DNA of 64,000 bases from a bacterium (GTDB taxonomy: Bacteria > Patescibacteriota > Microgenomatia > JAMCZE01): the NCBI GenBank assembly GCA_021836035.1, contig JAKBJL010000003.1, positions 4,135 through 68,134 on the forward strand, written 5' to 3'. The number at the start of each line of letters is the position of its first letter. The stretch's first letter is position 1. The notes under the pieces were generated by a model that ran no database searches, was not told where the DNA came from, and worked only from the letters and a program-made list of their open reading frames with translations. A program made the translations under genes and the position numbers. This document shows positions 12,233-44,651 of the stretch, in pieces.

Positions 12233-12625
12233 CTACTTAAGTTCCACCGTCGCGCCTGCAGCCTCTAACTTTTTCTTGGCTTCCTCGGCTGTCGCTTTAT
12301 TCACTCCCGTTACCACTTCTTTTGGCGCGGATTCGACTAAAGCTTTCGCTTCGGTAAGTCCCAGAGTAGGAACTACTTCGCGGACGGCCTTGATAGCCGA
12401 AATCTTATTGGCTCCGGCATTGGTTAAAACCACATTGAACGTTGTTTGCTCCTCTTTCGGTTCGCCGTTAGCAGCGTCTGATGCGGCCGCCTGGGGTGCA
12501 GCTACCGCTACCGGTGCCGCGCTGACTCCGAACTTTTCTTCCAAAGCTTTTACCAAATCAGCCAATTCCAAAACGGAAAGTTCGGATATCGCCTCAATTA
12601 TTTCGTCTTTAGATAATTTTGCCAT
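12233..12625 (-). CDS. rplL: 50S ribosomal protein L7/L12.
   Basis: [34 protein letters not shown]... Ala-rich linker. C-terminal [14 protein letters not shown]...[14 protein letters not shown]. Confidence 0.95.
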
Positions 12626-12746
12626 TAATTATTTCACCACCTTCTGGAAACAGTTAATGAGTTTTAGCGAATTTACTGTTTCTTGAAACCGCCGCTAAAG
12701 CGCAACACGAGCCGTTGTCAATAGATATGAAAGGCGAGCGTTAAGC

Positions 12747-13259
12747 TTAGGCGAGCTTTCCAATGTTGCCCAATACGTAAACTAATTTCTGTAAATTCCC
12801 ATTCAGGGTATGCACCAACCCGTACATGGGCCCGGATAATCTGCTGACTACCTGACCTTGTAGTATTTCTTTACTCGGGAGGGTGGAAATAGCGGCAATT
12901 TGGGCGCTATCATATGTCGTGTTTCCGATAAATCCGCGGCTGACTGCCGGCAACTGAAAATTTTTGATAAATTTATAAAGTTCTTTGATAGGGGTAATTT
13001 CATCACCATAAGCAAGAAGCGCGGCGGTGGGTCCGGGAAAGGCGGTATTCTCCAGATCGAATCCGGAACCCCGGCCGGCAATTTTTAAGAGCGTATTTTT
13101 GACGACAACGTATTCCGCGTCCACTTTGCGGAGAGTCTTGTGAAGTGATTCCAGTTGTTTATGGGTTAAGCCGCGATAGTCTGTCAACACCAGAGCTTTC
13201 GCCCGGCGGACTTTATCGTTAAGGTTGGCAACCGAATCAATATTCCTTTGGTTTGGCAT
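12747..13259 (-). CDS. rplJ: 50S ribosomal protein L10.
   Basis: 170-aa ORF immediately upstream of rplL with L10-like sequence (KALVLTDYRGLTHKQLESLHKTLRK...). Confidence 0.9.
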   Translation of the reverse strand: MPNQRNIDSVANLNDKVRRAKALVLTDYRGLTHKQLESLHKTLRKVDAEYVVVKNTLLKIAGRGSGFDLENTAFPGPTAALLAYGDEITPIKELYKFIKNFQLPAVSRGFIGNTTYDSAQIAAISTLPSKEILQGQVVSRLSGPMYGLVHTLNGNLQKLVYVLGNIGKLA

Positions 13260-13270
13260 ACTTTTGTACC

Positions 13271-13296
13271 AATAAAAAACTTCGGCGACGCCGAAG
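13271..13296 (-). terminator. Intrinsic-terminator-like hairpin plus U-tract about 11 nt upstream of the rplJ start codon. Candidate attenuator in the L10 leader.
   Basis: Minus-strand RNA reads CUUCGGCG-U-CGCCGAAG (7-8 bp GC-rich stem) followed by UUUUUUAUU and then GGUACAAAAGU-AUG (rplJ). Confidence 0.4.
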
Positions 13297-14077
13297 TAGA
13301 ATTATAAATTCCTGCGTGAGTCTTGCACCCTTCCGGAATGCTCACGGTCTTCGGACAACCATACTATTATACATTATAACTTCCCGCGGGGTCAACCCCG
13401 ATCGCGATTGGGGCAGGCTCCCTCAGCAGGCTATAACACTGAGCGTAGCCGAAGCGCCGTTCAATTAGTCGCCAGTTTCAGCCGAGATAATCTGGCTACA
13501 ATATCTACGTTTAGGCAGAAATAGACTCCGGCGGACTTCTCGAGTTCAACCGGTACGACCGGCAGCGCGTCCGGAATAAAATTTCTCATGTTATGGTCGG
13601 GGATTTGACCGCCGCGGTATCTATGGCGTCTACCATCGTTTTATCGAAGGTGTTTCTTTAAACCCGGTCCATATTTTGATGCTTCCGCTTCGGCTTCTAA
13701 TCTTAATCTTCGTATTTTGGGCTAAAAAGATTTGCCTGACGGGAATGCCTGTTTATGGATTGCCAATCCCGCCCATACCTGGAAAGCCGTAGCTGACAAT
13801 GCTACCATTACCTTATTCGGTTTTTCTCCCAATCATTCCTCTCCTTTAGCACGGCGGGATAAGATAATTTTACCGCGCAGGTTAATTTTTCTTTAGAACC
13901 AGCAAATGCTACTTCTGATTTATTTCTAATTTAACTTTCGCTCTGGCCGTAAAATCGGTATTTATACGCGGAACAAAGCCGATGATCTAAACTTACACAG
14001 GAAAGTAGATATTACCAATTAAGGATGAAACTACTTGAAACGGGGTACTGAACAATACAAGATTCTCTTTATCATTC

Positions 14078-15334
14078 CTATCTTCGGGGATCTAGCATGG
14101 GGTGTTTGCGGTCAAAGTCTGCGGCCAATTCCGCAGCCCGTTCTTTTAAGAGACGAAAATCTGCCGGAGTGGGTACCCGGATTCCTAACTCCGGACAATG
14201 TTTGGCCAGGAATTTAATTACCTCGTGAGTTCCGTCGATATCGGTGGTAAAGCAAAGCGTTCCCCCTTCCAGTTCCGGCCGGTAAGTTTGGCGCCGTTTT
14301 CTTTCGATTGCTTCCGTTAAGTTTCGATCATAAGCATGATGTGGGGGATGGATTTCCCAGCAAACCGCTCGGCCGGGGATATCGCTGAGGAGAAAATCGG
14401 TTTTAAATCCCCGGTTTTCGTAAGAGGGAACATGCAATCTCCGGGGATCAAATTTTTCTCCGTTTTGCGAAAGATACCAGGTAATAACGGACAACCGTTC
14501 CAGAGAAGAATCGAAGCGGGTAATTTCTCCGGTCCCGAATTGATAAAAAGCCCGGGGGACAAGCGGCTTTCCGGGTTTTGCTTTTTCGGGAAGGGGGCAG
14601 GGGGGAAATTCTTCAAGTAACCGTTCCGTTTGGCCGCAATATTCCGCCTGATACGCGGCAATTAAGTTCGGATCTTTTACTTTATGATACAGCCAGTTGC
14701 GCATTTGCCCTTTAAAAAAACCCGCCAGGGAATTTTTACCGGCAAATATTTTCGGGTGCTTGGGCCAATTAGCCCAGCCGTCGTATTTTTCCCAAAAAGC
14801 GGGATTCAGACGATGATCCAGGAGAAAGGAGACAAAATCAGGATAATAGTAGCGGCTCAGCGGGGGATTGTGGTAAATCCTTTTCTTGGCGATGGTGGCC
14901 TCTTCCGGTCCGGGATAATTTTTCCGGGTAAAAATATCTACGGCGCGGCAAAATCCCGGAGCGTCGGGAGAAAGCCGGGAGGTGAATTCCTCCTCGCTTT
15001 TGCCGGTCCACTCGCGTCGTAAATTAAGATAAAGACTAAAATGGTTAACGGTTTTAAACCTGTCCAGGAAATCGCCGGAGCGCAGCGGCGAAATCCGGCG
15101 GCGGGCGTGATGGCGCAGCATAACTAAGGTGTCACCAACGGTTTCCAGGTCCCAGCCGGTTAGCCCGTAAGGGTGGGGGTTGCCGGTAATTGCTATTGCT
15201 AATTCAATTTCCGCGGGAGATTTTTCCCGATGATACCGCGGTGGAACCGATAGGGGCAAAGGATGGCCAAGAATATACTCCCTGGTAATAGGAAAAACGA
15301 AAAAATTCCCGGAAAGTTCGTTGGTTACCAGCAT
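14078..15334 (-). CDS. Hypothetical protein (418 aa).
   Basis: Long ORF with no recognisable motif. Divergent from the dockerin operon. Confidence 0.4.
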   Translation of the reverse strand: MLVTNELSGNFFVFPITREYILGHPLPLSVPPRYHREKSPAEIELAIAITGNPHPYGLTGWDLETVGDTLVMLRHHARRRISPLRSGDFLDRFKTVNHFSLYLNLRREWTGKSEEEFTSRLSPDAPGFCRAVDIFTRKNYPGPEEATIAKKRIYHNPPLSRYYYPDFVSFLLDHRLNPAFWEKYDGWANWPKHPKIFAGKNSLAGFFKGQMRNWLYHKVKDPNLIAAYQAEYCGQTERLLEEFPPCPLPEKAKPGKPLVPRAFYQFGTGEITRFDSSLERLSVITWYLSQNGEKFDPRRLHVPSYENRGFKTDFLLSDIPGRAVCWEIHPPHHAYDRNLTEAIERKRRQTYRPELEGGTLCFTTDIDGTHEVIKFLAKHCPELGIRVPTPADFRLLKERAAELAADFDRKHPMLDPRR

Positions 15335-15434
15335 TTACCGGGCAGACTTTCAGATATTAATAAATATTTTTAAAAAAAATACAAGAGGAAAATATTTGGA
15401 GAAAAGTACGGAGAATTATGTTAGATTTAAATTA

Positions 15435-17837
15435 ATGGGGCGAAATCTCCGTGTTAAATTTTTTTTAGTAATTACCTTCTTTTTGGCGTTTGTAAAACCG
15501 GTTTGGGCCGCGGATGTTTTCAGCGATAACTTCGAAAATGGTTTGGGGAATTGGCAGATAACGGCTCTGGGAAATGCGGTGGTAAATACTGCTCTGGACA
15601 CCGATCCCGGCTCTACCCATGGCAATATCCTCCATGTTTATTATCCGGGAAATAACTCCGATATCAAAATTATTTTAAAGAATTTAACTAGCTTAATTTA
15701 CGGCAAATCGAATTTAGTGTATGAGGTTGACTTTTATGACGACCCGGCCAGGGATTACGGAATTAGTTTTTATGTTCGCGATGCCTCAGGCAGATACCTG
15801 GAATTTATTGTTGATAGCCTTACCGGAAATTACCGTTTGCGAAATGATTACGGCGCGCAATCTAAATATTTTGATACCCGGATAAGCCGCAAATTAGGCT
15901 GGCATAAAATCCAGATTATCGTCAGCAGCGCGGGTGCCTATCTGGTAATTGACGGCCAGAATTCCGTTTACCTCCGCGGGCAGATTGCTTATCCCAACGT
16001 GAGTGAGATAGATTTCCCCATCTTTAACGGGCTCACGGGAATTTCCGAGGTCGGAATCGAATACCCCGCGTGGAATAAACCCGCCGGTAACAGTTACTGG
16101 GATAATTTCCGGATTTATGAACTCCGACCCCAGGCGAAAACTACTTCCCAAAAAGAGGAAGATTTAATTCTCGAATACCTGAATAGTTACGAGAGCAATC
16201 TCGGCAATGCCAATTTTCTAAACGCCGAGACTACCCTAAAAGGAATTCAGAATTTTCAACTTTCGCGCCTGGGTTTGGCAGCGGCCTATGGGGTTCGTTA
16301 TAGCGCCGGCGGCGATGTTAACGACCTGGCTAATCTGAAAAAGTATTTAACCGCCGTTATCAACGACTATTGGGCTGCCGGGGGTTGGAAAGGGCAACAA
16401 TCGGAAACGCCAATATCCGGCCAGGTTATAGCCGCCATTGCTTCCTGGCAGTGGAGCAACCTGGATACGACTCTCCGGAACAAAATTTCCGGAATATTGA
16501 ATGATATCGGCACCAATACGAACAAAAATAATTGTATAAGCTCCATGGCGGCAGGTTATGATAATAATCAGATTTCGGATAGCCGAGGAGAGGAATTTGC
16601 CTGGATTGCTTCCTACCTTAAATTTGTCTCCGATGTTTATCAGGATAAATCGGATACCCCGTCTTGCGGGGTCAACGATCCGGCTTTAACTAAATGGAGT
16701 GTGCGGGCAGCTAACTTCGCCTGTGTATCGACGACCCATGCACTTGCGACCGATCCTACTAAAATCGACCCGGGCGATATTTGTACCAGCAACCAGGCGG
16801 TCATGCCCCCCAATCCCTCCTTAACAAGTGCCTTTATCATGCGCAATCACGGAATTGATCATCCGGGTTATGCTTTGACTATTGCCTGGGGGTTGGCCCA
16901 GGCGCAACTTTATCAACTGAACCAGGGGAAAACCGAAAGCCAAATCGAAACTGATTATCGGAGGAATTTTGGTAACTTCTACACCAACAATATCTCCAAC
17001 CTCGTCCGCTTTAATAATTATTCCTATAAACCACTTACGCCGGCGGACATGATCTTTGCCTATACAGGGAAAGACGATTGGGATCAGGATGCGACGCTTC
17101 AAGATCAGGCTTGGGCCTACTTTGACATTATTTTTAAGAATCGGCCCGGCTGGAATTGGACAAATAAGCTTGACGGGATAGTTAATTATGCCTGGTTAAC
17201 ACGGGGCGGCAAAGCTTTTTATCCTCCCCTTGTTGACGGAGATTTAGCGGCCCATTGGCTTGAGCCGGAGGTAATTTCCTGCGGTCCGGGATCCTGCAAC
17301 GCTTACAAGATGAACAGCGCTCTCTATTTTTTTCTAAATTCCATGGACGCTATTGACCGCTTTGAAACACTGTTTATTATTAATCCCTCGGTTTATCCCT
17401 TGCATCTGATTTGTACTCCCAGTACCAGTTGCGGAACTAAAAACTGTGGGACAATACCTGACGGCTGCGGAGGCACCCTAAATTGTGGTCCAACCACACG
17501 GGCCTGTACGGCTGCCTTTGGGACCTGCTCTGTTACCGGAACCCAATCCTGCCAAGTCGATAATACCTACAGTCTAACCTGCACCGCTACTGATCCAAGA
17601 ACGGCCAACTGTGTCGGGAAGAACTGTGGCACTGACGGTTGTGGAGGGGTCTGTGGTACTTGTACCCTGCCCCAAGTCTGCGGCGGGGGGGGAACCCCGA
17701 ATGTTTGTGCTCCTCTCCCCGGAGATCTAAACGGAGACGGGAAAGTAAATATTACCGACCTAAAACAGCTTTTATCTTCCTTTACCAATATCTTCAATTA
17801 CAATTTAGTCGTGGCCAATTTCGGCGAAACCCAATGA
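15435..17837 (+). CDS. Large secreted protein with Cys-rich repeats and a C-terminal dockerin-like tag. First gene of a three-gene operon.
   Basis: ATG at 15435 gives the signal peptide MGRNLRVKFFLVITFFLAFVKPVWA. The track's upstream start is a TTG. C-terminal repeats KNCGTIPDGCGGTLNCG / KNCGTDGCGGVCGTC. Tag PGDLNGDGKVNITDLKQLLSSFTNIFNYNLVVANFGETQ. The stop TGA overlaps the next gene's ATG (ATGA). Confidence 0.7.
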   Translation: MGRNLRVKFFLVITFFLAFVKPVWAADVFSDNFENGLGNWQITALGNAVVNTALDTDPGSTHGNILHVYYPGNNSDIKIILKNLTSLIYGKSNLVYEVDFYDDPARDYGISFYVRDASGRYLEFIVDSLTGNYRLRNDYGAQSKYFDTRISRKLGWHKIQIIVSSAGAYLVIDGQNSVYLRGQIAYPNVSEIDFPIFNGLTGISEVGIEYPAWNKPAGNSYWDNFRIYELRPQAKTTSQKEEDLILEYLNSYESNLGNANFLNAETTLKGIQNFQLSRLGLAAAYGVRYSAGGDVNDLANLKKYLTAVINDYWAAGGWKGQQSETPISGQVIAAIASWQWSNLDTTLRNKISGILNDIGTNTNKNNCISSMAAGYDNNQISDSRGEEFAWIASYLKFVSDVYQDKSDTPSCGVNDPALTKWSVRAANFACVSTTHALATDPTKIDPGDICTSNQAVMPPNPSLTSAFIMRNHGIDHPGYALTIAWGLAQAQLYQLNQGKTESQIETDYRRNFGNFYTNNISNLVRFNNYSYKPLTPADMIFAYTGKDDWDQDATLQDQAWAYFDIIFKNRPGWNWTNKLDGIVNYAWLTRGGKAFYPPLVDGDLAAHWLEPEVISCGPGSCNAYKMNSALYFFLNSMDAIDRFETLFIINPSVYPLHLICTPSTSCGTKNCGTIPDGCGGTLNCGPTTRACTAAFGTCSVTGTQSCQVDNTYSLTCTATDPRTANCVGKNCGTDGCGGVCGTCTLPQVCGGGGTPNVCAPLPGDLNGDGKVNITDLKQLLSSFTNIFNYNLVVANFGETQ

Positions 17838-19765
17838 AGAGAATAATTTTTATTTTGTTCTTGGGAATATTTTTACTCCAGGGAAAAAAGGTCTTTGCCG
17901 CGGGATTTGCTGCACCTGCAAGGATATATGCCTCTTCGGAACTGCAGGTATCCGGGTACAACTGGAGCGCTCAAAATGTCCTGGACAACAATCCCCAAAC
18001 TGCCTGGTCGTCTAAACAACTATCCGGTCCGGATAATTCTGAATGGTTGACTTTTGATTTCGGCACTCCCGTATCCCTGGCTAAAATCATAGTCACGCCC
18101 AGAGTTTGGCAAAATCGCATTCAGGCTTTCCCGAAGGCTTTCAATATCGGCTACAGCGACGATGGCTCTACCTGGAAAATTATTCCCGGCTTTGATTTTC
18201 AAAGTTTTCCTGACCCCCAACCTAACTCTGATGGTACCGCGCCACAACTGCCATTTCCTGTTAACTCTACATATCGTTTTTTTGGCCTCGGTTTTTCCAA
18301 AGCTACCACTGACAGCTATGGGGGTTATTTTATTCAGCTGGCCGACGTCCGTTTTCTTACTAGCGAATGCACATTGGACAGCGATTGTTCCGCCGGCCAA
18401 TCCTGCCGGCAGGGAGTTTGCGGTGTCAACACTTTACCGTACTGGAATTTAAAGCCCGGCAGCTACTGGATTTTGTCCGGTACCGATAATTATAGCGGCA
18501 TTCCGCTTTCTTTTCGGCAAAGATACGATTTGGAATTACCGGAAAATATCTGCACTGACGGGTCAAACAAGAGTGTCTTAACCTGGCGCGTTACCCGAGA
18601 TGTCGCTTGCCCCTATCCCCACCAATGTTATTGGGGTAATTTAAGATTTATGTTCGTCGATCCGACAGTTGACACCAGCCCTTTTATCTGGGCCACCGCA
18701 GATAAGCGCTATACACGTAACCCGGACAGTCCATTTGCCGATATCGGTACTCTTTACCAACACAGTTATTTTAGCGGACGGTTGGATACCTCCCAACCGT
18801 ACGTGCCGCCCTATCTTTATTCGCCCAAATTCCTTCCGGGCTTAGGCAATAATCTCGAATACCGCTACAACCAAAACTATTATTGGAACTATGGCCAGCC
18901 CGGGATACCAATCGCCGATGAGAACATGTGCCGTGATACCTCGCTCGGCCGTGACCAGGCAGATTTGATTATGAGATACCAATTGACCGGCATAAATACC
19001 CCGGCGTATCATGGTCCGGCTTTATTAGTCAGTCAGGGGGAGAAGTCAAGCTGGTGTACTAGGGAAGATTGGTACTTAGCACCCAACATCGGCATTTCCA
19101 GGGTTGACCAGTGGAATTGTAATACTACCGGAAATTCCTGTTATGACGGACAGCATTTCGGCAGTTGTAACTGCAATTCCTGGACCATTGATTCCGGAAA
19201 TCACCCGAACTGCTATCAGAATTTGGCTCTACAGGATCCTGCGATGAGCATGTCCCTGGTTAAATATTATCTTGGCCATGCCTTGCAGGCTTCGGTCAAC
19301 AACACCACTTCCGTCCAAACTAACGCAAGGCAAACATTGGCTTTTAACTTTATAGATCCTTCAACCAACTTTACCTATGAGGGGCAGCTGGATACGGAAA
19401 ACAGTTTTATTTCTCCCGACGGTAATTCCCTCGTTGCTGCTGGGAAATGGAATACTTGGGTCGGAACGGACGGCAAAGTGACTATGACCATTGGCCAAAA
19501 TATTCTTCCCGGTACCTACCGCACTCGCTTCCGCCCTCATTTTTTCAGTTCGCCTGACAGCGCCTTACAAACTAATGCCGAATCTGTTACCGGGCAAAAC
19601 AACCTTCCCTGGAGCAACGAAGTAACTCTAACTATCAATCCGATTCCCGGCGACTTAAACGGCGACGGCCAGGTTAATATCGCCGATTTACGGGCCTTGC
19701 TCGGAAACTTTTCCGGCATCTTCAATTACAATTTAGTCGTGGCCAACTTTGGCAAAACCCAATGA
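17834..19765 (+). CDS. Secreted protein with an F5/8 type C (discoidin) domain and a C-terminal dockerin-like tag.
   Basis: Signal peptide MKRIIFILFLGIFLLQGKKVFA. The discoidin-like segment is YNWSAQNVLDNNPQTAWSS...WLTFDFG...YSDDGSTW. C-terminal tag PGDLNGDGQVNIADLRALLGNFSGIFNYNLVVANFGKTQ. ATGA stop/start overlaps at both ends. Confidence 0.7.
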   Translation: MKRIIFILFLGIFLLQGKKVFAAGFAAPARIYASSELQVSGYNWSAQNVLDNNPQTAWSSKQLSGPDNSEWLTFDFGTPVSLAKIIVTPRVWQNRIQAFPKAFNIGYSDDGSTWKIIPGFDFQSFPDPQPNSDGTAPQLPFPVNSTYRFFGLGFSKATTDSYGGYFIQLADVRFLTSECTLDSDCSAGQSCRQGVCGVNTLPYWNLKPGSYWILSGTDNYSGIPLSFRQRYDLELPENICTDGSNKSVLTWRVTRDVACPYPHQCYWGNLRFMFVDPTVDTSPFIWATADKRYTRNPDSPFADIGTLYQHSYFSGRLDTSQPYVPPYLYSPKFLPGLGNNLEYRYNQNYYWNYGQPGIPIADENMCRDTSLGRDQADLIMRYQLTGINTPAYHGPALLVSQGEKSSWCTREDWYLAPNIGISRVDQWNCNTTGNSCYDGQHFGSCNCNSWTIDSGNHPNCYQNLALQDPAMSMSLVKYYLGHALQASVNNTTSVQTNARQTLAFNFIDPSTNFTYEGQLDTENSFISPDGNSLVAAGKWNTWVGTDGKVTMTIGQNILPGTYRTRFRPHFFSSPDSALQTNAESVTGQNNLPWSNEVTLTINPIPGDLNGDGQVNIADLRALLGNFSGIFNYNLVVANFGKTQ

Positions 19766-22269: not shown

Positions 22270-22291
22270 ATTTTGTGCTAAAGTTAAATTA

Positions 22292-24750: not shown

Positions 24751-24754
24751 GAGA

Positions 24755-27385: not shown

Positions 27386-27427
27386 CGGTTGACAGCCCGT
27401 AAAATATTATCATAACATTAACTGAAG

Positions 27428-29577: not shown

Positions 29578-29608
29578 ACAGCCGGATTCTGTTGTAATAT
29601 TATCTCCA

Positions 29609-30888: not shown

Positions 30889-31182
30889 ATGGCCGATGAA
30901 CAATTGTCAAAAACCAACAAATTTGATATTCACGACAGAATTTTTGACTTTGCAGTTTGGGTTATAAAGATAACAAAAGCTCTTCCCAAGACCCAGCAGA
31001 ACTTGAATATTATTGACCAAATTTCCCGATTGTTCACATCAATGGGAGCCAACAGCCAGGAAGCAGATGGTTTAACCGGCAGAAAACAAATTATAAGTTG
31101 TTTCGCTACCGTAAAACGGGAAACGAAAAGAAACAAAATACCGGTTAAAAATTGTTATCTCAACAAATCCAGGTTTTTCTAG
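30889..31182 (+). CDS. Four-helix-bundle protein (23S rRNA intervening-sequence protein family, TIGR02436-like).
   Basis: KFDIHDRIFDFAVWVIKITKALPK...IDQISRLFTSMGANSQEADG follows the family pattern (FDLEER...F...LP....ADQ..RS..SIGANY.EA.G). Confidence 0.55.
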   Translation: MADEQLSKTNKFDIHDRIFDFAVWVIKITKALPKTQQNLNIIDQISRLFTSMGANSQEADGLTGRKQIISCFATVKRETKRNKIPVKNCYLNKSRFF

Positions 31183-35295: not shown

Positions 35296-35345
35296 TTTAT
35301 ATTTTTTCGTTTGACTCCTCCCCCGTTTTATGGTTCGATGAATAT

Positions 35346-35960
35346 ATGGTGAGTTGGTTCTTGCGAAAGAGAGTTCTCCTTGTTTTCCTTTTTATATTGG
35401 CGGTTATTATTCTGGCGGAATTTGCCTATTATTTTATCCTTCTTGGGCACAGAAAAGTCCCCCTAACTGCAGGAAAACAAGGCGAGGCGGTAAGTTCCCA
35501 CCGAAATATGCTGCCGGAAGATTACGAAATTCCCTCAAGCGCAACCGGTAAACTAACGGACACCATAAGTTTGGAGAAGGACATAAGCAGTCTTAATTTA
35601 ATTACGGACAAGAGTTTAAAGGCTCTGGCTACTGTCTCCGGAGTATCGGCCTCTTTTAACGGAACTTCTTTTGAAAAGGTAATGGGGGGTAAAGTTATTA
35701 AGGTCGAAGAGACCAACGACAAATACCAGATTACTCTGCAGCAAGAGCAGGGTGCGGTATCGGTACAATTAGCATCGGGTCTAATTCTTTACTCGAAGAA
35801 TAAAGACATATTTATTGCTAGGCAAATTGTTTGGGGTAACAAGGATTTTGAGAAATATTTTTTAGATCAGGTCAGACCGGGTAAAGAAATAATGCTCTCG
35901 GATGTGGCTGGGGAAGCGGGGGGGCAACTTAGTGCCGGGAAAATTATCGTTGTAAATTAA
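35346..35960 (+). CDS. Membrane-anchored hypothetical protein.
   Basis: N-terminal TM LLVFLFILAVIILAEFAYYFILL. No recognisable motif. Confidence 0.35.
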   Translation: MVSWFLRKRVLLVFLFILAVIILAEFAYYFILLGHRKVPLTAGKQGEAVSSHRNMLPEDYEIPSSATGKLTDTISLEKDISSLNLITDKSLKALATVSGVSASFNGTSFEKVMGGKVIKVEETNDKYQITLQQEQGAVSVQLASGLILYSKNKDIFIARQIVWGNKDFEKYFLDQVRPGKEIMLSDVAGEAGGQLSAGKIIVVN

Positions 35961-35963
35961 CAC

Positions 35964-38900
35964 ATGAAAAGAATATTATGGCTAATTGCTCTCTTCTTGG
36001 CGATGGTTTGTTTGGGAATTTTCTTTCAAAATAACCCTTCCTTCGTGCGGGCCCAAACGTGTGATCCCAATGACCCCTGCTGCGATCCCTGGCGCCCGGC
36101 TGCCTGCCATTGTTGCCAGCCGGATGATTATACAATAGCATGTGTAATTTCTATGAACTGCGGCAGCAACCCTACTCCGTGTCTCGCAGGAGTTTGCTCT
36201 AAACCTGGCAACAACAGTGAGGCGGAATGCCAAAACGCCGGCGGTTCATGGTATTACACCTGCTGCGATTATAACAACATTTACACCTCGACTTATAACC
36301 CCAATAAAGGTTACTGTTCTTCAGTTTGTAACGGCACCTGCACTTTCTGGGATAACAATATCAGCAATTGGAATTACAATGGCCATTGCAACGTAGACGT
36401 CCAGGGCTGTTACCCTACCTGCACGGCAACTTCCGGGCCTGGGACTGCTTACGTCAATAAAAGTACGGCCCCCAATAACTATAGTGCCAGTCCACAGAAT
36501 GGGGGGACGAGCTACGGAATTTATAAGTTAGCTCCCAGCTCGGACCCGAAATTAGGCACTTCCTGGTCTACTATTTGTGGCCCCGGAGGCTGCCCGGCAC
36601 CGGGTACTTTTTCCAGTACGGGAACTTGGACAGCAACCTGCAATACTTCTCGGTTAATGGACAGGTACGGAGTTTCCACTACCTATGCCTGTTCGGGAAA
36701 CCCCGCTTGTGAATCGGATCCGGCCTGGTGTAGCTCTATAGGAGGTTCGCCGGGTTATAAATGGTGTGGTCCGGGTTCCCGGATGCCAGTCAATGTATAT
36801 AATATTCCTACCTGCAGTATCTCCTGCAGCCCCAACCCTGGAACCCAGCCGAATGCGATTGATATAACTACTAATGCTAACGGGAACGGGGGAGGCATTT
36901 ACGGGGTTAATGTTTATGTCAATCGGGATCCTAACGGGGGTTATTCTACCTGGGACTCAATCGCTAGTGCCAACGGGGGAGGAGCTTCTACTTATTCCAC
37001 TACCAATTCCTGGTCTTCTACCAATACGGCAACCAGCTATACGGTCGGTACTCACCGGGTAGCGGCTAATCTTTATGACACTAGCGGCAATTATCTTTAT
37101 CAATGCGGCAATACCTGTACCCTTAACCCGCCCCCGCCGCCCAGTTGTACTTTAGACCTTCTTCCTGCTACCAATACTATTTACACCAACGGTACGGTTA
37201 ACCTTACCGCCAGCTATACCGCCAACAATGCCATTATTTCTTATGTTGATTTTTCCTCTAACACCAATACTGCCGCGACGACCGTTAATCCCAGCCGTGA
37301 TAGTTATGCTCCTTACATAACCAGAGTTACTGCCGGGAATACGGCGGGTACGGCCATTATTACTGCTGTGGGAACGATGAGTGACGGGAATACAACCTGC
37401 CGGGATACCGCTACCGTAAATGTTATTTATCCTCCTCCCACCTGCGGGACTTTAGCTTGCGCGTTTAATCCCAACGTTTTAAAAATTGGGGATAGCGGGA
37501 GCGGCCAGATCAGCGGCGCCCCGACCAACGGCACAATTACCGGGGGTACCTGGCTTAATCCGCCGTCTACTACTACTTTACCGGTGACCCAGCTTGCCAG
37601 TCTTTCTGCCCCCGGCCTGGCCCCCACCTATCGGGTGGCGGTAACCCCCAAAGCGGTGGGCACGGGACAATCAACGGTAAATGTAAATGTACTCGGGCTG
37701 GATGGAACCAATATTATTTGCGCCCGCACTTGCCAACTAACCATTTCTTCGCCGGATGTTTCCTGCCAATTTAATGTGGATGTTTCGGGCGCGACCGGGC
37801 CGGGAGGAAGCATTATCGTCGATGACTCGCTCACGGTCACGACTACGGTAAGTGTGCCTACCGGAGCTTTATACGCAGCTCCCACTACGGCTGAAATCAA
37901 TTTTGCCAGCAGCGTGCCTGCGGTTATTCGCGCACCGGCCGATGTTACAATGTATAATGCTCCCAGCTCCACTAACATCCAAATTTTATCAGCCGACCAT
38001 ACAGGCTCAACGACTATTACCGCCTCCGGTTATTTGACCAATTTCCAGCCGGGTTTGGGGATTACTTCCATTACCTGTACCCCCGGGCTGTATAACGCCG
38101 TGGTTAATGAATACGGAGGCTGGTGGCAGACGGGGGCAGCTAATGCTTACGGGGATATTTTTGCCAAAGGAACAATTCGTAGCCCGCTCCCCAATGACAC
38201 TACTTTTTTGGATTTAGGCAACAATCCGCTAACTCATTCCACAATCGTCTCAACTGATGTCGGGATAACGGGACATCCGGAAACACCGTCCATTGATCTT
38301 TGGAGCCATGAGGGGAAATTAAGTACTGCACAATATCAGGTGAAAACCGACAGTACCAGCCCTGCCGGGGAAACGGGGAAATATGCCAGTTATACTTACT
38401 GGCATGATCTCTTAACCGGTCAGTTACATACTTTTACCTGGCCCGGGGGACACGTGATTGACTCCATCCACAGTATTCCTAGTATTATTTCCGGTATGGC
38501 CGCAAACGAAACCCGGGTTTATGAAGTCGATGGTGATCTGACCGTCTCTAGTATCCAACAGGTAAACAACGCCGGCGGTTCACCGAAAGCAGTCATCTTT
38601 CTGGTCAAGGGAGATTTGTTAGTCAATGCGATTATTACCTCCCGCGATCCCCAGCTTTTCCTGGGCTTTATCGTCAAAGGCGGGGGGGCGGTAGATGGTA
38701 TTAAAGTCCAGGATGGTTTACAGCGCGGGATAAATACTACCATGGACGGCTTTTTCCTGACTGACGGTACTTTTGATACCGGTACAAATGTTGGCGGCAA
38801 CCAGGATTTTAGCGGCAAAGGTGTCTTTATCGCCCACGATTTCAAATTGCAGCGCACTATGGGAAATCAGAACAAAATCTTCCCGTCGGAAACTTTTATT

Positions 38901-38978
38901 TTCGATCCCGCTTTAATTTTAAACGCTCCTGCGGAGATGATGCACCCCCTCTACTCCTGGAGCGAGATGGTGCCCTAG
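35964..38978 (+). CDS. Giant secreted Cys-rich surface protein (1004 aa). Paralog of 39870..41951.
   Basis: Signal peptide, then AQTC. Very Cys-rich N-terminus (CDPNDPCCDPWRPAACHCCQ...). Ig-like middle. Conserved C-terminal domain (WWQTGAANAYGDIF...FLDLGNNP...FDPALILNAPAEMM). Confidence 0.6.
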   Translation: MKRILWLIALFLAMVCLGIFFQNNPSFVRAQTCDPNDPCCDPWRPAACHCCQPDDYTIACVISMNCGSNPTPCLAGVCSKPGNNSEAECQNAGGSWYYTCCDYNNIYTSTYNPNKGYCSSVCNGTCTFWDNNISNWNYNGHCNVDVQGCYPTCTATSGPGTAYVNKSTAPNNYSASPQNGGTSYGIYKLAPSSDPKLGTSWSTICGPGGCPAPGTFSSTGTWTATCNTSRLMDRYGVSTTYACSGNPACESDPAWCSSIGGSPGYKWCGPGSRMPVNVYNIPTCSISCSPNPGTQPNAIDITTNANGNGGGIYGVNVYVNRDPNGGYSTWDSIASANGGGASTYSTTNSWSSTNTATSYTVGTHRVAANLYDTSGNYLYQCGNTCTLNPPPPPSCTLDLLPATNTIYTNGTVNLTASYTANNAIISYVDFSSNTNTAATTVNPSRDSYAPYITRVTAGNTAGTAIITAVGTMSDGNTTCRDTATVNVIYPPPTCGTLACAFNPNVLKIGDSGSGQISGAPTNGTITGGTWLNPPSTTTLPVTQLASLSAPGLAPTYRVAVTPKAVGTGQSTVNVNVLGLDGTNIICARTCQLTISSPDVSCQFNVDVSGATGPGGSIIVDDSLTVTTTVSVPTGALYAAPTTAEINFASSVPAVIRAPADVTMYNAPSSTNIQILSADHTGSTTITASGYLTNFQPGLGITSITCTPGLYNAVVNEYGGWWQTGAANAYGDIFAKGTIRSPLPNDTTFLDLGNNPLTHSTIVSTDVGITGHPETPSIDLWSHEGKLSTAQYQVKTDSTSPAGETGKYASYTYWHDLLTGQLHTFTWPGGHVIDSIHSIPSIISGMAANETRVYEVDGDLTVSSIQQVNNAGGSPKAVIFLVKGDLLVNAIITSRDPQLFLGFIVKGGGAVDGIKVQDGLQRGINTTMDGFFLTDGTFDTGTNVGGNQDFSGKGVFIAHDFKLQRTMGNQNKIFPSETFIFDPALILNAPAEMMHPLYSWSEMVP

Positions 38979-39044
38979 AAGGGGATTCCTTTGCCATACT
39001 TCGACCCGGTTGACTTCTTCTGCTTTCTGAGTTAAGAAAGCCCT

Positions 39045-39800
39045 ATGAAGGGGTTTAGCCCTGAGGGGTTAAGGCACCGCCGGGATACAATTACTTTAGT
39101 GGTATTATTAAATCTGCTGTCCGGGTGCCGTGGGGATTTTACTCCGGTGGCAAACTTTTCCTCGGGAGAGAAGACTCCGATCCCGTCGACAGCCGCGACT
39201 GCCGAAGTAACGGCTACTATCGCCGAATCTACCTCTACGCCGACTGCGTTTCCTTTTCCAACGCACACTTCGGTCCCGACCGCTACCCGCACAGAAGCGC
39301 CGAAACCTGCACCCACCAAAATGCCAACCAAAACGCCGCGGCTCTGGCCGTCAATTCCGCCTTTGGCTTCAGCCGAGATCGTAATTAACTGGCAAAGTTT
39401 TGAAGATGACAGCGGCGCTCGCGGACTGGAAGGAAAATATGTTAATGTAGAAGCTCTTGACGGGCAAATTGTCCGTTTTTGGATTGATGTCAGCCGGGAC
39501 GAAATAGAAAATCCCGTGCCTCTGGAATTTCCGGTTGACCGGGAGAGACCGCTGAAAATTTATGATTCCCTGGTGCAGACTGGTTGGCGAAAGTTTTACG
39601 GTCCAAACGGCGAGCAGTGGTTAACGCCGGTTTACATCAGCGGAGCAGAAGCTTACTCTCCGGAAGAGGTGGTAGAAATGGTTAAACATTATTTCCGCAG
39701 CGGGGATTTTGCCTCTGTTGATTATTTTTCCCGGGGCGTGCCTGCAAGAGGTCCCCTGCAAAATCGCAATGTCAACGAATTAGGTTACCTGGTTAAGTAA
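39045..39800 (+). CDS. Putative lipoprotein with a Thr/Pro-rich linker.
   Basis: Lipobox-like LLNLLSGC. Linker TATIAESTSTPTAFPFPTHTSVPTATRTEAPKPAPTKMPTKTP. Confidence 0.45.
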   Translation: MKGFSPEGLRHRRDTITLVVLLNLLSGCRGDFTPVANFSSGEKTPIPSTAATAEVTATIAESTSTPTAFPFPTHTSVPTATRTEAPKPAPTKMPTKTPRLWPSIPPLASAEIVINWQSFEDDSGARGLEGKYVNVEALDGQIVRFWIDVSRDEIENPVPLEFPVDRERPLKIYDSLVQTGWRKFYGPNGEQWLTPVYISGAEAYSPEEVVEMVKHYFRSGDFASVDYFSRGVPARGPLQNRNVNELGYLVK

Positions 39801-39869
39801 AAGTCGCTTACCGGACTCGTCGGATTTCTCCCATTGTCAGTAATACAGGTAGGTGCTAATCTGAAATTA

Positions 39870-41951
39870 ATGAGGGTTGCCGGGATGTTGGTGTTGGCCA
39901 CGGGGGTAATTGTCGGATTATTTCTTTTCTTCCGTGCCGGTACGGTAAAAGCCCAGACGTGTGGTCTTTGTAACGGGGGTAAAGATTCCACTTGTTCCTG
40001 CGGGATTTACGGCCAAACCCGGGTAGCTCCCTGTTGCGATAGTGCTCCCAGTTGCCGCTTCTTAGGTTTTGAGGGCTGTCATGTAGATCCTTCGGGAACC
40101 GGTTGTGTTCCCACTGGCTGTGCCGGTGGCGGCGGGGGAGGAGGACTTACCTGTAATGAGAACGGAGGTTGGTGTGTGGGCGATTTATGTACAGACGAAA
40201 ATGCCGAAAAAACAGGCTCGTGTGGTTCCTATTGGATTACCGGCGTAAACGCCCAGAACTGGGACGAAACAACCTGCAAGCAGCGTAATTGGACTTATCC
40301 AGGTGTTCCGGTAAAGAAAGATAATGGGAACGGTTACTGGTTGCCGAAAGGACAATGTACGGGCGCCTGTAGACTGTCGGGAAAAACCTGCGGAGAGGGA
40401 ACCTGTAAGGATGTCTGCAATAATGATGTTCCCTGTAACATAGCGTGTCCGTCTCCTACTCCGCCTCCGCAATATCCTGTCTGCGATAGTCTTAACGTCG
40501 CTCAGTCCGGCCCTTATGCTCCGGCGACAATGACTATCAATTTAACCGGGCATACGGTTAATGGCGGCGTCATTAATACTTACGGGTTAGATATTATTGA
40601 CCCGACAGGGAAAACTAATCACTATGAAAATACTACGGGTAAATTCAGCATCTCTTTTAATCTCCCGGGGAATTACCAATTTACCGGTACCGTGATAGAC
40701 AACCTGGGTAAAACTTCTATCTGTAAAAGTACTTCGGTAACTTTACTGAAACCTCCGTTGTCCTGCAATTTAACTTTATATGACGCGCCGACAAATGATT
40801 TGGTTATCGGCGAGATATACCAAGCCTTGAAAGCAAGGGTTGATCTTACAAATAGCACGGACTACAACGATGTGAAAAAAGTGGAATTTACTTCTTCTAA
40901 TGGTCAGGCTATTCAAATTGACCCTGCGGTTATCGATTGGTATGTATATAACGGCATTTACGGGACAGATCTAAATATTAAGGGTGTAGCAAAAAAGATA
41001 TTTATTAAAGCCACAGCTACGTTGAGGAATGGGAAAATTTGTTTCGATGAGGTGGAGATAAATTCAACCTGGTTTCCTGCTTGGTGGCAAGCTAACCAGC
41101 CATCCGCGTACGGTGATATTTTTGCTTTTGACGAAATTAAGGACCCCATTTTTACCGACTTGAGCACCTTTTTGGATCTGGGGAACAATCCCGCGAAACA
41201 CTCTGCTGCCGTAGCTACCAATAGGGGAACCACCGGGTTTCCCACGCCGGACCTTAGCGGGGTCCCGGTAAACAAACTGAATAGTGCTATGTGGAAGATT
41301 AAAACGAATTCCCTCTACCCGGTGGGGCAGGCGGGACAGTATTTAAGCTATGACTACTGGTACAAATATCTAGGTGGGGATAGTTCGGTCCAAACCATGA
41401 CCGATAATGTTAATTCCGCTAATTATCTTGATGACCATTTGACGGAGGGTATATATACCCCCAGTCCTGGTCCGAACCTGCATATTCATCATAAACAGCA
41501 AATCAGTGCCGGGAAATATTTAATCATTTTAGTTCCCGGCAATCTTTATATCGATTATGCGGTGTCTGGCGAGGGGACCTGGATTGAACGTACGGATCCG
41601 ACCGCTTTTATAGCTTTCATTGTCAAAGGAAATATTATAATTGCGAACGGTCTGCAAAATGGGAATAATCCCTTGCTGGACGGGGTATATATTGCCCAAG
41701 GGAAATTCCAGACGGGGACTAGTATTGATTACTCAGGCGATAAAGATCCTAAGGATCCGAATAATCAAAATAAACAATTCCGTGGACGGGGGATTTTTGC
41801 CGCGGGCGGTGGATTTACCCTGGATCGGGATTTAACCAATCTTAATAATAAACAACCGGCAGAGATCTTCGATTATGACCCCTCATTGGTTCTTAACGCT
41901 CCTGCCATTATTCGTCGCTCGCATTACACTTGGGCGGAAATTGCCCCATAA
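39870..41951 (+). CDS. Large secreted Cys-rich surface protein. Paralog of 35964..38978.
   Basis: The internal ATG gives the signal MRVAGMLVLATGVIVGLFLFFRAGTVKA followed by QTCG. The shared C-terminal domain is WWQANQPSAYGDIFAF...FLDLGNNPAKHS...YDPSLVLNAPAIIRR. Confidence 0.6.
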   Translation: MRVAGMLVLATGVIVGLFLFFRAGTVKAQTCGLCNGGKDSTCSCGIYGQTRVAPCCDSAPSCRFLGFEGCHVDPSGTGCVPTGCAGGGGGGGLTCNENGGWCVGDLCTDENAEKTGSCGSYWITGVNAQNWDETTCKQRNWTYPGVPVKKDNGNGYWLPKGQCTGACRLSGKTCGEGTCKDVCNNDVPCNIACPSPTPPPQYPVCDSLNVAQSGPYAPATMTINLTGHTVNGGVINTYGLDIIDPTGKTNHYENTTGKFSISFNLPGNYQFTGTVIDNLGKTSICKSTSVTLLKPPLSCNLTLYDAPTNDLVIGEIYQALKARVDLTNSTDYNDVKKVEFTSSNGQAIQIDPAVIDWYVYNGIYGTDLNIKGVAKKIFIKATATLRNGKICFDEVEINSTWFPAWWQANQPSAYGDIFAFDEIKDPIFTDLSTFLDLGNNPAKHSAAVATNRGTTGFPTPDLSGVPVNKLNSAMWKIKTNSLYPVGQAGQYLSYDYWYKYLGGDSSVQTMTDNVNSANYLDDHLTEGIYTPSPGPNLHIHHKQQISAGKYLIILVPGNLYIDYAVSGEGTWIERTDPTAFIAFIVKGNIIIANGLQNGNNPLLDGVYIAQGKFQTGTSIDYSGDKDPKDPNNQNKQFRGRGIFAAGGGFTLDRDLTNLNNKQPAEIFDYDPSLVLNAPAIIRRSHYTWAEIAP

Positions 41952-42046: not shown

Positions 42047-42925
42047 TTAAACCTGTACTCTTACCGCCGGGCTCATGGTGGATTTGAGGAAGAGGGATTT
42101 TATTCTTTCCCGACCGATAGCTTTGATTAAAGCTTCCGCGTTCTCTACTAAATCTTTATCGGCAAAGCTCACTTTACCCAGAATCGTATGGACAATCGGC
42201 GCTTCCGTTTCGGTTTTAAACTGGATCTGGCCGGTAGATAATTTTTTCGCTAACTCTTCCGGGTTTTCGCCTATAGTTCCGGTTTTCGGGTTGGGCATTA
42301 GCCCCTTGGGGCCTAAAATTTTAGCAATTTTAGCCAGTTTCGGCATGAGAGTTGGGTGGGCGACTAGAATATCAAAATCAATATTGCCGCCTTTTTCTAA
42401 ATCCGTAATCAGTTTCTCGTCCGCAATACGGATGCGGATTTCTTTTCCAGTACCGTGGGGGAGGGCAACCACACCCCGAACCCCTTTTTCCGTAAGGTTG
42501 GCGTGCAATTCCATGGTGCCGTCAAATTTGGAAAATGTAGTCTTTTTGACCAATTCGATAGCTTCCGATAGGGGATAAGTTTTGTTTTTGTCCACCAAAG
42601 ATTTCATTTGCAGATACGTTTTTCCATGGGATAATTTTCTGCCCGCGGCAGATCGGCCCAGGGTCGATTTTTCCCCGGTCTTCTTAAGCTTTTTTTCTTC
42701 CGGTGCTTGTTCTTGTACTTGTTCTTTTTCCTTTTCTTTTTCTTTTTCTTGTTCTTGTACTTGTATTTGAACTTGTTCCTTTTCCCCTTTTTCACTATCT
42801 TTATGCTCTATGCTTTCCGCTTTCCGCTTAGTTAGTCTTTTTTGCTCGCGTTTAGCCTCCGACTTCCTGCGGGCGGCTTCCTCTGCTTTTTCATCTCCCA
42901 TGACAACTGTTTTAACTTTTCCCAT
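42047..42925 (-). CDS. rplA: 50S ribosomal protein L1 with an N-terminal Lys/Glu-rich extension of about 95 aa.
   Basis: The core (VALPHGTGKEIRIRI...LGPKGLMPNPKTGT...) is L1. The N-terminus KAEEAARRKSEAKREQKRLTKRKAES...EQEKEKEKEKEQVQEQAPEEKK is encoded by the low-complexity DNA at about 42700-42790. Confidence 0.85.
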   Translation of the reverse strand: MGKVKTVVMGDEKAEEAARRKSEAKREQKRLTKRKAESIEHKDSEKGEKEQVQIQVQEQEKEKEKEKEQVQEQAPEEKKLKKTGEKSTLGRSAAGRKLSHGKTYLQMKSLVDKNKTYPLSEAIELVKKTTFSKFDGTMELHANLTEKGVRGVVALPHGTGKEIRIRIADEKLITDLEKGGNIDFDILVAHPTLMPKLAKIAKILGPKGLMPNPKTGTIGENPEELAKKLSTGQIQFKTETEAPIVHTILGKVSFADKDLVENAEALIKAIGRERIKSLFLKSTMSPAVRVQV

Positions 42926-43046
42926 TTTTAGTAAATTCTATAAATCAAATTCCAAGATAAATAGTAAATTCTAAATTAAAAATTATTAAATATTTAAATA
43001 TTTAGATTTACTTTAGATAATTAGATCTGGTTTCTTGGCAATTTTG

Positions 43047-43472
43047 TTACTCAATTTTAATGCCCATTGATCTTGCTGTTCCGGCAACAATTTTCTCTGC
43101 AGCCTCTAAGTTGTCATTGGCGTTTAAATCTTCCATTTTAGCAGTAGCAATTTTTGTAACTTGCTCATGGGTAATAGTTCCCACCGATTCCTGGCCTGGT
43201 TTTTTCGCTCCCTTTTCCAGCTTTAACTCCTTTTTTATTAGCTCGGCTACAGGCGGCAGTTTGGTAATAAATGAGAACGTTCTGTCCTCATAAACAGTTA
43301 TAACGGCCGGTATAACCTGCCCTTTTTTATCGGCTGTTTTTTCGTTGTAAGCCCGCACAAAGTCCATGATCGGCAGTCCGTGTTGGCCCAAGGCGGGACC
43401 AACCGGCGGAGCCGGAGTAGCTTCTCCCGCAGGAAGATTTAACTTAATAATAGTCTTAACTTTTTTTGCCAT
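43047..43472 (-). CDS. rplK: 50S ribosomal protein L11.
   Basis: [22 protein letters not shown]... canonical L11 sequence. Confidence 0.9.
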
Positions 43473-43475
43473 AGC

Positions 43476-44057
43476 TTATAATTTAGTAACCTGCAGGAAG
43501 TCCAGCTCTACCGGGGTTTCGCGGCCGAAAATAGAAACAAGCACCTTCAGTTTGCCGTGGGCTTCGTCTATAGAGTCGACTGTTCCTAAAAAATCGGCAA
43601 AGGGACCGTCAATAATTTTGATGGCTTCACCGGCGGAAAAGCTGCTCTTAAATTTCGGTGCCGCCAGCTGCGAAAATTTCATGATCGCTTCCACTTCTGA
43701 TTCCGGCAGGGGGGTGGGTTTGTTTCCCGTTCCGATAAAAGCGGTTACCCCCGAAGTAGTCCGTACGGCCAGCCATGAGTCGTCAGTTAAAATCATTCTG
43801 ACGAGAATGTAGCCCGGGAAGATCTTTTCTTTGACTTCTTCTTTTTTGCCGCGTTTGACAGTCATGGTGTCCTTGGTCGGAACCATAACTTCGAATATGT
43901 AATCCATCAAACCCATCGCCTCCGCGCGTTGTTTAAGAGCCGCGGCCACTTTGTTTTCGTGGCCAGAATAAGTATGAACCACATACCACTTAGCTAAATC
44001 CGAAGGCTTGGATTGCGGATTTGCTTCCGTATTTACTTGTGTAGTTTGTTCATCCAT
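43476..44057 (-). CDS. nusG: Transcription termination/antitermination factor NusG.
   Basis: From the internal Met: MDEQTT...KWYVVHTYSGHENKV...PGYILVRM... with KOW region GEAIKIIDGPFADFLGTVDSID. The track's 5' extension overlaps secE. Confidence 0.85.
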   Translation of the reverse strand: MDEQTTQVNTEANPQSKPSDLAKWYVVHTYSGHENKVAAALKQRAEAMGLMDYIFEVMVPTKDTMTVKRGKKEEVKEKIFPGYILVRMILTDDSWLAVRTTSGVTAFIGTGNKPTPLPESEVEAIMKFSQLAAPKFKSSFSAGEAIKIIDGPFADFLGTVDSIDEAHGKLKVLVSIFGRETPVELDFLQVTKL

Positions 44058-44086
44058 ACAGTAATTAGAAATTAGATGTTTATTAG

Positions 44087-44317
44087 CTATCTGCTTAATA
44101 TGGCTGCCATTGCTTTGGCAAAAATAAAATCTAATCCTCCTAGGTAAACCCCGACTAAAACCGATACCCCAACAACTACAGCGGTTAATTTTAACACTTC
44201 CGGCCGGCTGGGCCAAGCAACCTTACGCAGTTCCGACCGCACTTCCTTGAGAAAAGTTACCGGATTAGTCCCGAAATTCGGACGGGTAATATTAAAAGAA
44301 TCGCTTATTTGGACCAT
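44087..44317 (-). CDS. secE: Preprotein translocase subunit SecE.
   Basis: 76 aa with a single C-terminal TM. KEVRSELRKVAWPSRPEV motif. Sits directly upstream of nusG. Confidence 0.7.
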   Translation of the reverse strand: MVQISDSFNITRPNFGTNPVTFLKEVRSELRKVAWPSRPEVLKLTAVVVGVSVLVGVYLGGLDFIFAKAMAAILSR

Positions 44318-44477
44318 AATTAATTATCGGTTTTCAGTTCTCGGTTCTCAGAAATAAGTTTACCGGTTCTCTTTTTATCGGTTACCGATAAACCGAGAAC
44401 AGATAGACTGGAATCCGAAAACCGCCAGCCCAAGGCTGATCCGCCTCGGGCGGGAAAACTGGCAATTAATAACCGCA

Positions 44478-44651
44478 TTATTTTAATTTCTCGGTTTCCT
44501 TGTGCTCCGTGTGTTTTCGGCAATGCCGGCAGTATTTTTTTAATACTAATTTATCTTTGTTTTCCAGCTTGTTTTTGGCCGTCACGTAATTACGGTATCC
44601 GCAGACAGCGCAGACCAAACCTAACTTCACCGTTGCATCTTTTTGGGCCAT
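44478..44651 (-). CDS. rpmG: 50S ribosomal protein L33.
   Basis: The 57-aa ORF is below the track threshold: [57 protein letters not shown], with Cys-x2-Cys...Cys-x2-Cys zinc-ribbon spacing. Conserved position upstream of secE. Confidence 0.7.

Follow-up and report, generated by a model that had tools for sequence, protein, structure and literature searches.

A 28.8-kb segment separates rplKA from rplJL in a Microgenomates bacterium, at a border where relatives also carry accessory genes

We examined the secE-nusG-rplK-rplA-rplJ-rplL cluster in a 64,000-nucleotide stretch of bacterial DNA (GenBank assembly GCA_021836035.1, contig JAKBJL010000003.1, positions 4,135 to 68,134; this whole stretch is called the window below). 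We observed that the cluster is split in two on the minus strand, with rpmG, secE, nusG, rplK and rplA at 42.0-44.7 kb and rplJ and rplL at 12.2-13.3 kb. A preliminary description, made from the letters of the window alone, had reported this split, and it was borne out, with 28,787 bp lying between the two halves. We think it likely that the window comes from a Microgenomates lineage in which the array has loosened and the rplA/rplJ border is a recurrent site for accessory genes, the window being the largest case. The cluster genes and the intervening segment are as follows.

44478-44651, minus strand: rpmG (ribosomal protein L33), an open reading frame (ORF) of 57 residues; PF00471 on the identical gene of contig L004, in precomputed annotation
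44087-44317, minus strand: secE, a 76-residue ORF; PF00584 on the identical gene, in precomputed annotation of an identical contig
43476-44057, minus strand: nusG, 193 residues from an internal ATG; Pfam NusG (E 3e-29) and KOW
43047-43472, minus strand: rplK (L11); Pfam L11 N- and C-terminal domains, E about 1e-26
42047-42925, minus strand: rplA (L1), the gene that closes the rplKA unit; Pfam Ribosomal_L1, E 2.6e-30 (residues 169-286)
13260-42046, no strand: the intervening segment, 28,787 bp from the rplA stop to the rplJ start
12747-13259, minus strand: rplJ (L10); Pfam, E 2.5e-18
12233-12625, minus strand: rplL (L7/L12); Pfam L12 N- and C-terminal domains, E 6e-20 and 1e-25

The split between rplA and rplJ in the window and in its relatives

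The genes secE, nusG, rplK and rplA are co-oriented and contiguous (42047-44317), with spacers of at most 122 nt, and only 3 nt separate nusG from rplK. The 193-residue form of NusG was also called in other assemblies. Each cluster gene is present once in the window, where we looked for remnants of rplA near rplJ and of rplJ near rplA and found none.

To place the organism, we relied on L10. All matches with a source name among the 285 L10 homologs were from Microgenomates or Gottesmanbacteria, and the rplJ loci with named taxa belonged to Gottesmanbacteria, Levy(i)bacteria, Microgenomates or Patescibacteria. Judged by these sequence matches, the source organism is a Microgenomates bacterium, i.e. 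a member of the Patescibacteria or candidate phyla radiation (CPR).

We then compared the window with 84 rplJ loci from relatives (80 from GTDB species genomes and four from metagenome contigs), in which the cluster genes were placed by tblastn. We observed that rplA lay upstream of rplJ on the same strand in 63 of the 84 loci, and that the distance between the two genes had a median of 2,246 bp (range 66-8,036 bp). The spacing was below 500 bp in 17 of these 63 loci and above 1 kb in 44, and three further loci had no rplA within 10 kb. At secE/nusG, rplK/rplA and rplJ/rplL, on the other hand, the spacing was 500 bp or less throughout. The only other border to exceed 500 bp was nusG/rplK (17 of 58 loci, up to 3.8 kb, within L006-L087), which is a second insertion site in the lineage. 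The transcription units in E. coli are secE-nusG, rplKA and rplJL-rpoBC. Since only the rplA/rplJ and nusG/rplK spacings exceed 500 bp, the interruptions are limited to borders between transcription units as known in E. coli. The gap of the window is the largest case seen here, at a hot spot typical of the lineage.

The genes carried between rplA and rplJ in the relatives were for the most part found at a single locus. The 129 ORFs fell into 85 families, 69 of them singletons, and one family of 14 members was common to Levy-like and unnamed loci. Seven of the ORFs had a Pfam acyltransferase domain. Glycosyltransferases, FemAB, DegT, toxin-antitoxin genes and surface proteins were also found, together with transposases of the IS200-like, IS1595 and rve types.

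The nearest relatives allowed us to ask in which direction the change went. The best L10 identity outside the window itself was 66%, and the nearest relative with usable context (L092, 63%) has rplA and rplJ 301 bp apart. One gene lies between them in L086 (61% identity), three genes in L091 (60%) and 3.3 kb in L007 (56%), so that the gap in the closest relatives ranges from 0.3 to 3.3 kb. Gene order and orientation on the two flanks of the window are conserved in L007, which has the abhydrolase and CAP genes on the rpmG side and the HTH, GalT-like, GH57 and GT5 genes after rplL. Because of these short gaps and the collinearity of L007, the window is best described as a net gain of DNA between rplA and rplJ.

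The preliminary description had pointed to an insertion or rearrangement at one of the most conserved loci in bacteria. The extra DNA relative to the nearest relatives agrees with this, and the segment is absent or much shorter in the relatives. What did not hold was the view of an exceptional event at an otherwise intact locus, as adjacency of rplA and rplJ is itself uncommon in the lineage, with more than 1 kb between them in most loci where the pair was found. The spacings come close to a lineage-typical gene order, the finding that the preliminary description had itself named as speaking against an insertion.

A different possibility is that an inversion or translocation carried rplJL away from rplKA, with no insertion. 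Nearly the whole block is on the strand opposite to the ribosomal genes, and murF homologs, which lie inside the gap of the window, adjoin rpmG/secE in L028 and L013, indicating that genes of this neighbourhood have been shuffled. However, rplKA and rplJL keep a common strand and the ancestral order, and both outer flanks are collinear with L007, an order that neither a single inversion nor a translocation of rplJL would have left intact. We consider such an event very improbable.

The preliminary description had also taken the lack of rpoBC after rplL as a sign of rearrangement. Using fragments of E. coli RpoB and RpoC as tblastn queries, which were validated against RNA polymerase chains of the PDB, we obtained no match to rpoB or rpoC in the window, which confirmed the lack itself. 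The 84 relative loci, searched to 10 kb from rplJL, likewise gave no match. As rpoBC is missing there across the lineage, its absence is not part of the event in the window; the gene order after rplL is ancestral for the lineage and the lack of rpoBC is its normal state.

Taken together, these results suggest the following course. The ancient secE-nusG-rplKA-rplJL-rpoBC array would have been loosened into separate transcription units in Microgenomates, with rpoBC unlinked from rplJL across the sampled lineage, and the border between rplKA and rplJL would have become a recurrent site for the build-up of accessory genes. The 28.8-kb insert of the window, with about 20 mostly antisense genes, would then be a mosaic of fast-evolving surface proteins, native-looking murF and ddl, and a decayed gene resembling a REP-associated tyrosine transposase (RAYT), and was probably built up stepwise. 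The split would be tolerated because it falls exactly between two separately regulated units, as rplJL is preceded by its own promoter-like site, an L10-type leader hairpin and a terminator-like attenuator, with which the two operons could work independently.

Two further features of the upstream half were seen. The L1 protein has 292 residues, with a Lys/Glu-rich low-complexity extension of about 100 residues at its N-terminus (42626-42925, minus strand) that is partly encoded by 12-nt repeats at 42689-42784; a typical bacterial L1 has about 230 residues. Long L1 proteins were also present in three of the four closest relatives (271 residues in L086, 302 in L091 and 310 in L092). Upstream of rpmG, on the same strand, lie tRNA-Thr(GGU) at 46542-46614 and tRNA-Tyr at 49274-49359, and unrelated genes separate the two tRNA genes and rpmG from one another. 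This resembles a loosened version of the tRNA-tufB-secE arrangement of E. coli.

Sequences upstream of rplJ and genes downstream of rplL

Three elements were recognized between the segment and rplJ.

13366-13395, minus strand: promoter-like site TTGACC-18 nt-TATAAT, with 11 of 12 consensus matches, the best in 11000-15400; a pattern match only
13308-13356, minus strand: putative leader hairpin, a divergent form of the L10(L12)4-binding type; single match in the window of each of the two lineage models, R1 and R2
13269-13297, minus strand: terminator-like hairpin with T-run (8-bp stem, then TTTTTATT), a putative attenuator located between the leader hairpin and the start of rplJ

In the relatives, the region upstream of rplJ carries the motif YCYAAGAC-helix-loop-helix-CCGAGG, and in many of them hairpins followed by a T-run, similar by eye, are also present. 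In an alignment of 41 sequences the helix was paired in 98.5% of cells, and both sides had changed in four of the eight pairs. A conserved helix with kink-turn-like flanks, supported by covariation, therefore lies directly upstream of rplJ. We built two covariance models from these sequences: R1 includes the window, while R2 leaves out the window together with its variant subclade. R1 gave exactly one match per source in 80 of 83 sources (1.27 Mb), always just upstream of rplJ, and scored the leader of the window at 34.8 bits. The sole match of R2 in the window was the same hairpin at 13308-13356, about 50 nt upstream of the rplJ start. Relatives also passed the 44-bit threshold of the Rfam L10 leader, RF00557 (L064 with 56.5 bits, L050 with 55.7 and L067 with 44.3); the copy in the window fell below this gathering threshold. 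The upstream features fit an L10(L12)4-binding leader followed by attenuation, and we infer from them that rplJL would have its own promoter activity and autoregulation.

The 3' strand variant CGCAGG of the window leader is common to the window, L007, L016 and L061, in each case paired with GACCG on the 5' side. It may represent a shifted or non-canonical kink-turn.

Downstream of rplL the two genes that recur in the relatives are the following.

10859-11065, minus strand (as rplL): HTH_17/MerR-type gene of 68 residues; Pfam HTH_17, E 5e-11
9926-10810, plus strand: GalT-like (DUF4931) gene; PF16285

A helix-turn-helix (HTH) gene of the excisionase family had been put forward in the preliminary description as a sign of insertion. 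This could not be upheld. In 68 of 81 relatives an HTH_17 gene is found downstream of rplL, in 59 of them on the same strand, and because it is a conserved neighbour of rplL it offers no evidence of a mobile element. The real gene is the 68-residue ORF on the minus strand; a plus-strand ORF at 10749-11051 was rejected as its antisense shadow. The GalT-like homolog follows rplL in 46 relatives.

The GalT-like gene closes a glycogen-type cluster downstream of rplJL (4524-10810) that consists of a GT5 gene, a GH57 gene, a second GT5 paralog and the GalT-like DUF4931 gene. Homologs of these cluster genes follow rplL in L007 as well.

The 1.17 kb at 11066-12232 hold no supported gene besides a weak HTH_17 likeness. 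This is at 12058-12165 on the minus strand, just downstream of rplL, where 36 residues are 33% identical to the HTH_17 protein (E 0.002); it may be a decayed second copy of HTH_17, at the place where the gene sits in many relatives. The metallophosphoesterase remnant that had been described at 11716-12039 found no support: there was no Pfam match even at E<=1 and no similarity to the loci of the relatives, and the GHAHGYER-type motif in it is seen by eye only.

Content, origin and assembly of the intervening segment

The segment holds about 20 genes, nineteen or so of them on the plus strand and antisense to the ribosomal genes.

14078-15334, minus strand: orphan gene of 418 residues, the sole gene of the gap co-oriented with rplJ; no family match
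15321-22269, plus strand: three large secreted-type proteins (838, 708 and 835 residues); F5/8 type C domain, E 1e-15
22.3-23.6 kb: small ORFs, with an orphan fragment at 23294-23497 that is dockerin-like by similarity search
23566-29577, plus strand: four cohesin/dockerin/Ig-like surface protein genes (394, 876, 220 and 496 residues); Pfam Cohesin, Dockerin_1, fn3 and Big_13
29540-30877, plus strand: murF-like ligase; TIGR01143 at 221 bits, under the cutoff of 288.6
30889-31182, plus strand: four-helix-bundle gene (TIGR02436, 23S rRNA intervening-sequence protein family), between murF and ddl
31324-32379, plus strand: ddl; NF002525 at 466.9 bits, over the cutoff of 457
32445-33680, plus strand: ChaN-like protein gene (Pfam)
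33759-34357, plus strand: RAYT-like (IS200-like) gene, apparently frameshifted; Y1_Tnp, E 7e-6
34714-41951, plus strand: five orphan genes (193, 204, 1004, 251 and 705 residues), with the most atypical composition in the window

The cohesin/dockerin genes, the paralogous large proteins and the murF-like and ddl genes had all been named in the preliminary description, and Pfam, NCBIfam and paralogy agreed. The proteins of 838, 708 and 835 residues are paralogous and share dockerin-like C-terminal tails (weak Dockerin_1 matches). Among the five orphan genes, none of which had a Pfam or NCBIfam match, the 1004- and 705-residue proteins have a C-terminal region in common (35% identity over 314 residues). 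When 5.8 billion proteins were searched with the 1004-residue protein, only itself, a 53% paralog on the same 405-kb contig of a metagenome-assembled genome (MAG) and one distant protein were found. The 418-residue orphan had no homolog in the 84 relative loci.

We observed a direct repeat of 520 nt, at 24231-24750 and 26866-27385, with one mismatch (99.8% identity). It encodes the identical 172-residue C-termini of the 394- and 876-residue cohesin/dockerin proteins, and suggests that these surface protein genes have recently undergone duplication or gene conversion.

The IS200-like element of the preliminary description was only partly recovered. A Y1-type gene is indeed present, but as a frameshifted RAYT-like gene rather than as an element. 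The NCBIfam model REP_Tyr_transpos covers it at model positions 42-146 only, with 58.5 bits against a cutoff of 80; the N-terminal 36 residues are encoded in a different frame, which runs into a stop, and the HFH and Tyr motifs are in 33884-34357, so that an intact Y1 (HUH) transposase ORF is not found for this gene. Homologs lie inside the rplA-rplJ gap of L048, L009 and L082.

Two of the smaller genes appear in other places in the relatives. The position of TIGR02436 homologs differs among L028, L070, L082 and L077, pointing to a small gene that is mobile. The murF-like gene is in the rplA-rplJ gap here and adjoins rpmG/secE in L028 (1752-2834) and L013 (4383-5813); murF thus appears to stay near the ribosomal cluster while switching its slot.

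Several observations weigh against the proposed build-up of accessory genes between two separately regulated units. The first concern the leader and the history of the locus. R2 was weak on the window leader (12.3 bits, E 0.24), Rfam found no leader in 11000-15400 of the window even at E<=1, and the kink-turn 3' strand of the window leader reads CGCAGG in place of the otherwise invariant CCGAGG. The genomic position of rpoBC in this organism, outside the window, was not located, and at 63-66% L10 identity to the nearest relatives the insert may reflect one event or many, at any time since they diverged.

The second concern the assembly. We compared the window by blastn with contigs of the NCBI MAG GCA_027371575.1, ENA ERZ27233560 and Logan SRR13170411/SRR13170412, which are 100% identical to it. 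No other assembly that we examined spans the full 28.8 kb. Their contigs break off near 37.2 kb and at the second 520-nt repeat copy, either inside it or next to it, and at least some of them come from the same samples (SRR13170411). It could thus be argued that the two halves were mis-joined through the repeat or near 37.2 kb, and that the 28.8-kb distance is unreal. In the NCBI MAG the two sides are on separate contigs, one ending at about 26,991 and the other starting at 27,309, both within repeat copy 2; ENA contig k141_342022 begins at 27,245, again within copy 2; and contig ends near 37.2 kb are seen in both the ENA and the Logan SRR13170411 assemblies. However, the contig ends abut in the order of the window, and the start of the ENA contig is exactly 140 nt from the end of the repeat, as a k=141 graph predicts. 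The unit between the repeats follows copy 1 and enters copy 2, so that A-R-B-R-C is the sole linear path if the repeat is present twice.

Both junctions of the gap, on the rplJ and on the rplA side, were recovered at 100% identity in other assemblies, which met the doubt raised in the preliminary description about the junctions, though the whole gap was found in no second assembly. Contigs of these assemblies extend 13.7 kb upstream of rplJ without reaching rplA, and 14.7 kb downstream of rplA without reaching rplJ. Because of these stretches the cluster split is robust with or without the internal join, and it is the exact 28.8-kb join that depends on the window's own assembly and the tiling of the other contigs. 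We give an assembly artefact very little credence. Apparent strain variants (1004/991, 705/693/688 and 157/149 residues) were rejected, since the contigs are 100% identical and only the start-codon calls differ.

The third concerns composition. Tetranucleotide profiles along the window gave a mosaic. Correlations in the flanks were 0.91-0.96 in most windows (0.86 at 1-4 kb), and the murF-ddl block at 30-36 kb, with 0.93-0.94, was like the flanks. The regions at 16-30 kb and 36-40 kb deviate (0.65-0.83, with 0.655 for 36-40 kb), and a foreign origin would be compatible with this. The segment might then be a single, recently acquired genomic island or mobile element between rplA and rplJ, as would also fit the transposase-like gene in it and the near lack of homologs of its genes in the 84 relative loci (the exceptions being the RAYT-like gene, in nine loci, and murF, the four-helix-bundle gene and three surface proteins, in one to four loci each).

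Against such an island, the Pfam and NCBIfam scans of gap ORFs gave no integrase or recombinase. The longest word shared by the borders as a direct or inverted repeat was 11 nt, while shuffled sequence reaches 12. There is no tRNA at either border, the tRNAs of the window being only at 46.5, 49.3 and 53.5 kb; these three were also the only Rfam matches over gathering thresholds in the window. The murF-ddl block has the composition of the flanks, and its Ddl scores over the equivalog cutoff. The deviating composition coincides with repetitive coding sequence of surface proteins, the most atypical gene has no outside donor but only its 53% paralog elsewhere on that MAG contig, and a frameshift interrupts the RAYT-like gene. 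We regard a single acquired island as quite unlikely. The segment is a mosaic in which native housekeeping genes are combined with surface-protein genes specific to the lineage, and it does not resemble any recognizable mobile island.

Implications and comparison with known systems

The "universally conserved" order rplKAJL-rpoBC fails in Microgenomates, which calls for caution in genome scans: lineage controls are needed before a split cluster or a missing rpoBC is taken for an assembly error or a recent insertion. The operon borders of the cluster behave like a hot spot for variable cargo in a CPR lineage, and could aid studies of surface variation at the strain level. A divergent form of the L10 leader persists in CPR genomes. 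A bolder proposal would be that rplA/rplJ, and to a lesser extent nusG/rplK, is a dedicated, lineage-wide hot spot for the rapid gain, duplication and loss of envelope and surface genes, and that the block in the window, with its orphan cohesin/dockerin proteins and murF/ddl, would serve an episymbiotic CPR cell as a rapidly evolving locus for attachment or the envelope, protected by the essential operons on either side. This we find rather doubtful.

Like genomic islands and integrative elements, the segment is a large block largely not shared with the relatives, with partly atypical composition and a transposase-like remnant. It differs from them in having no integrase, att repeats or tRNA target, and in the housekeeping genes murF and ddl inside it.

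The leader upstream of rplJ can be compared with RF00557. The L10(L12)4 leader has been shown to act by attenuation in B. subtilis (PMC4538822), and is a kink-turn mimic of 23S rRNA (PMC3616713). The hairpin of the window is likewise directly upstream of rplJ, with a helix flanked by CC...AAGAC and ...AGG, a conserved AA in the 3' part of the loop and a downstream hairpin with a U-run as in the attenuator type. It differs in scoring under the Rfam threshold and in carrying CGCAGG for CCGAGG on the 3' strand.

When set beside the canonical cluster of E. coli and Bacillus, the window has the same genes, order and strand in rpmG-secE-nusG-rplK-rplA and in rplJ-rplL, its breaks fall at known borders of transcription units, and an L10-type leader precedes rplJ. 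The differences are the 28.8 kb between rplA and rplJ, and the lack of rpoBC after rplL, in the window and within 10 kb in the 84 loci.

The order rplKAJL-rpoBC is widely conserved with exceptions, and in Bradyrhizobium diazoefficiens and Actinomyces israelii genes lie between rplKA and rplJL (PMC12993453). For Gammaproteobacteria and Bacilli, reconstructions show that the cluster has also undergone insertions and disconnections, inside its operons as well as between them (PMC8046335). As in these published interruptions, the accessory genes in the window and its relatives are at operon borders and the operons are intact. Here, however, interruption is the rule across a CPR lineage (more than 1 kb in 44 of 63 loci) with highly variable cargo, and the insert of the window is far larger than the 'insertion' class of less than 10 kb in PMC8046335. 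The event in the window is of the same kind as those already published; the frequency of such interruptions in a CPR lineage and the extent of the present example may be new.

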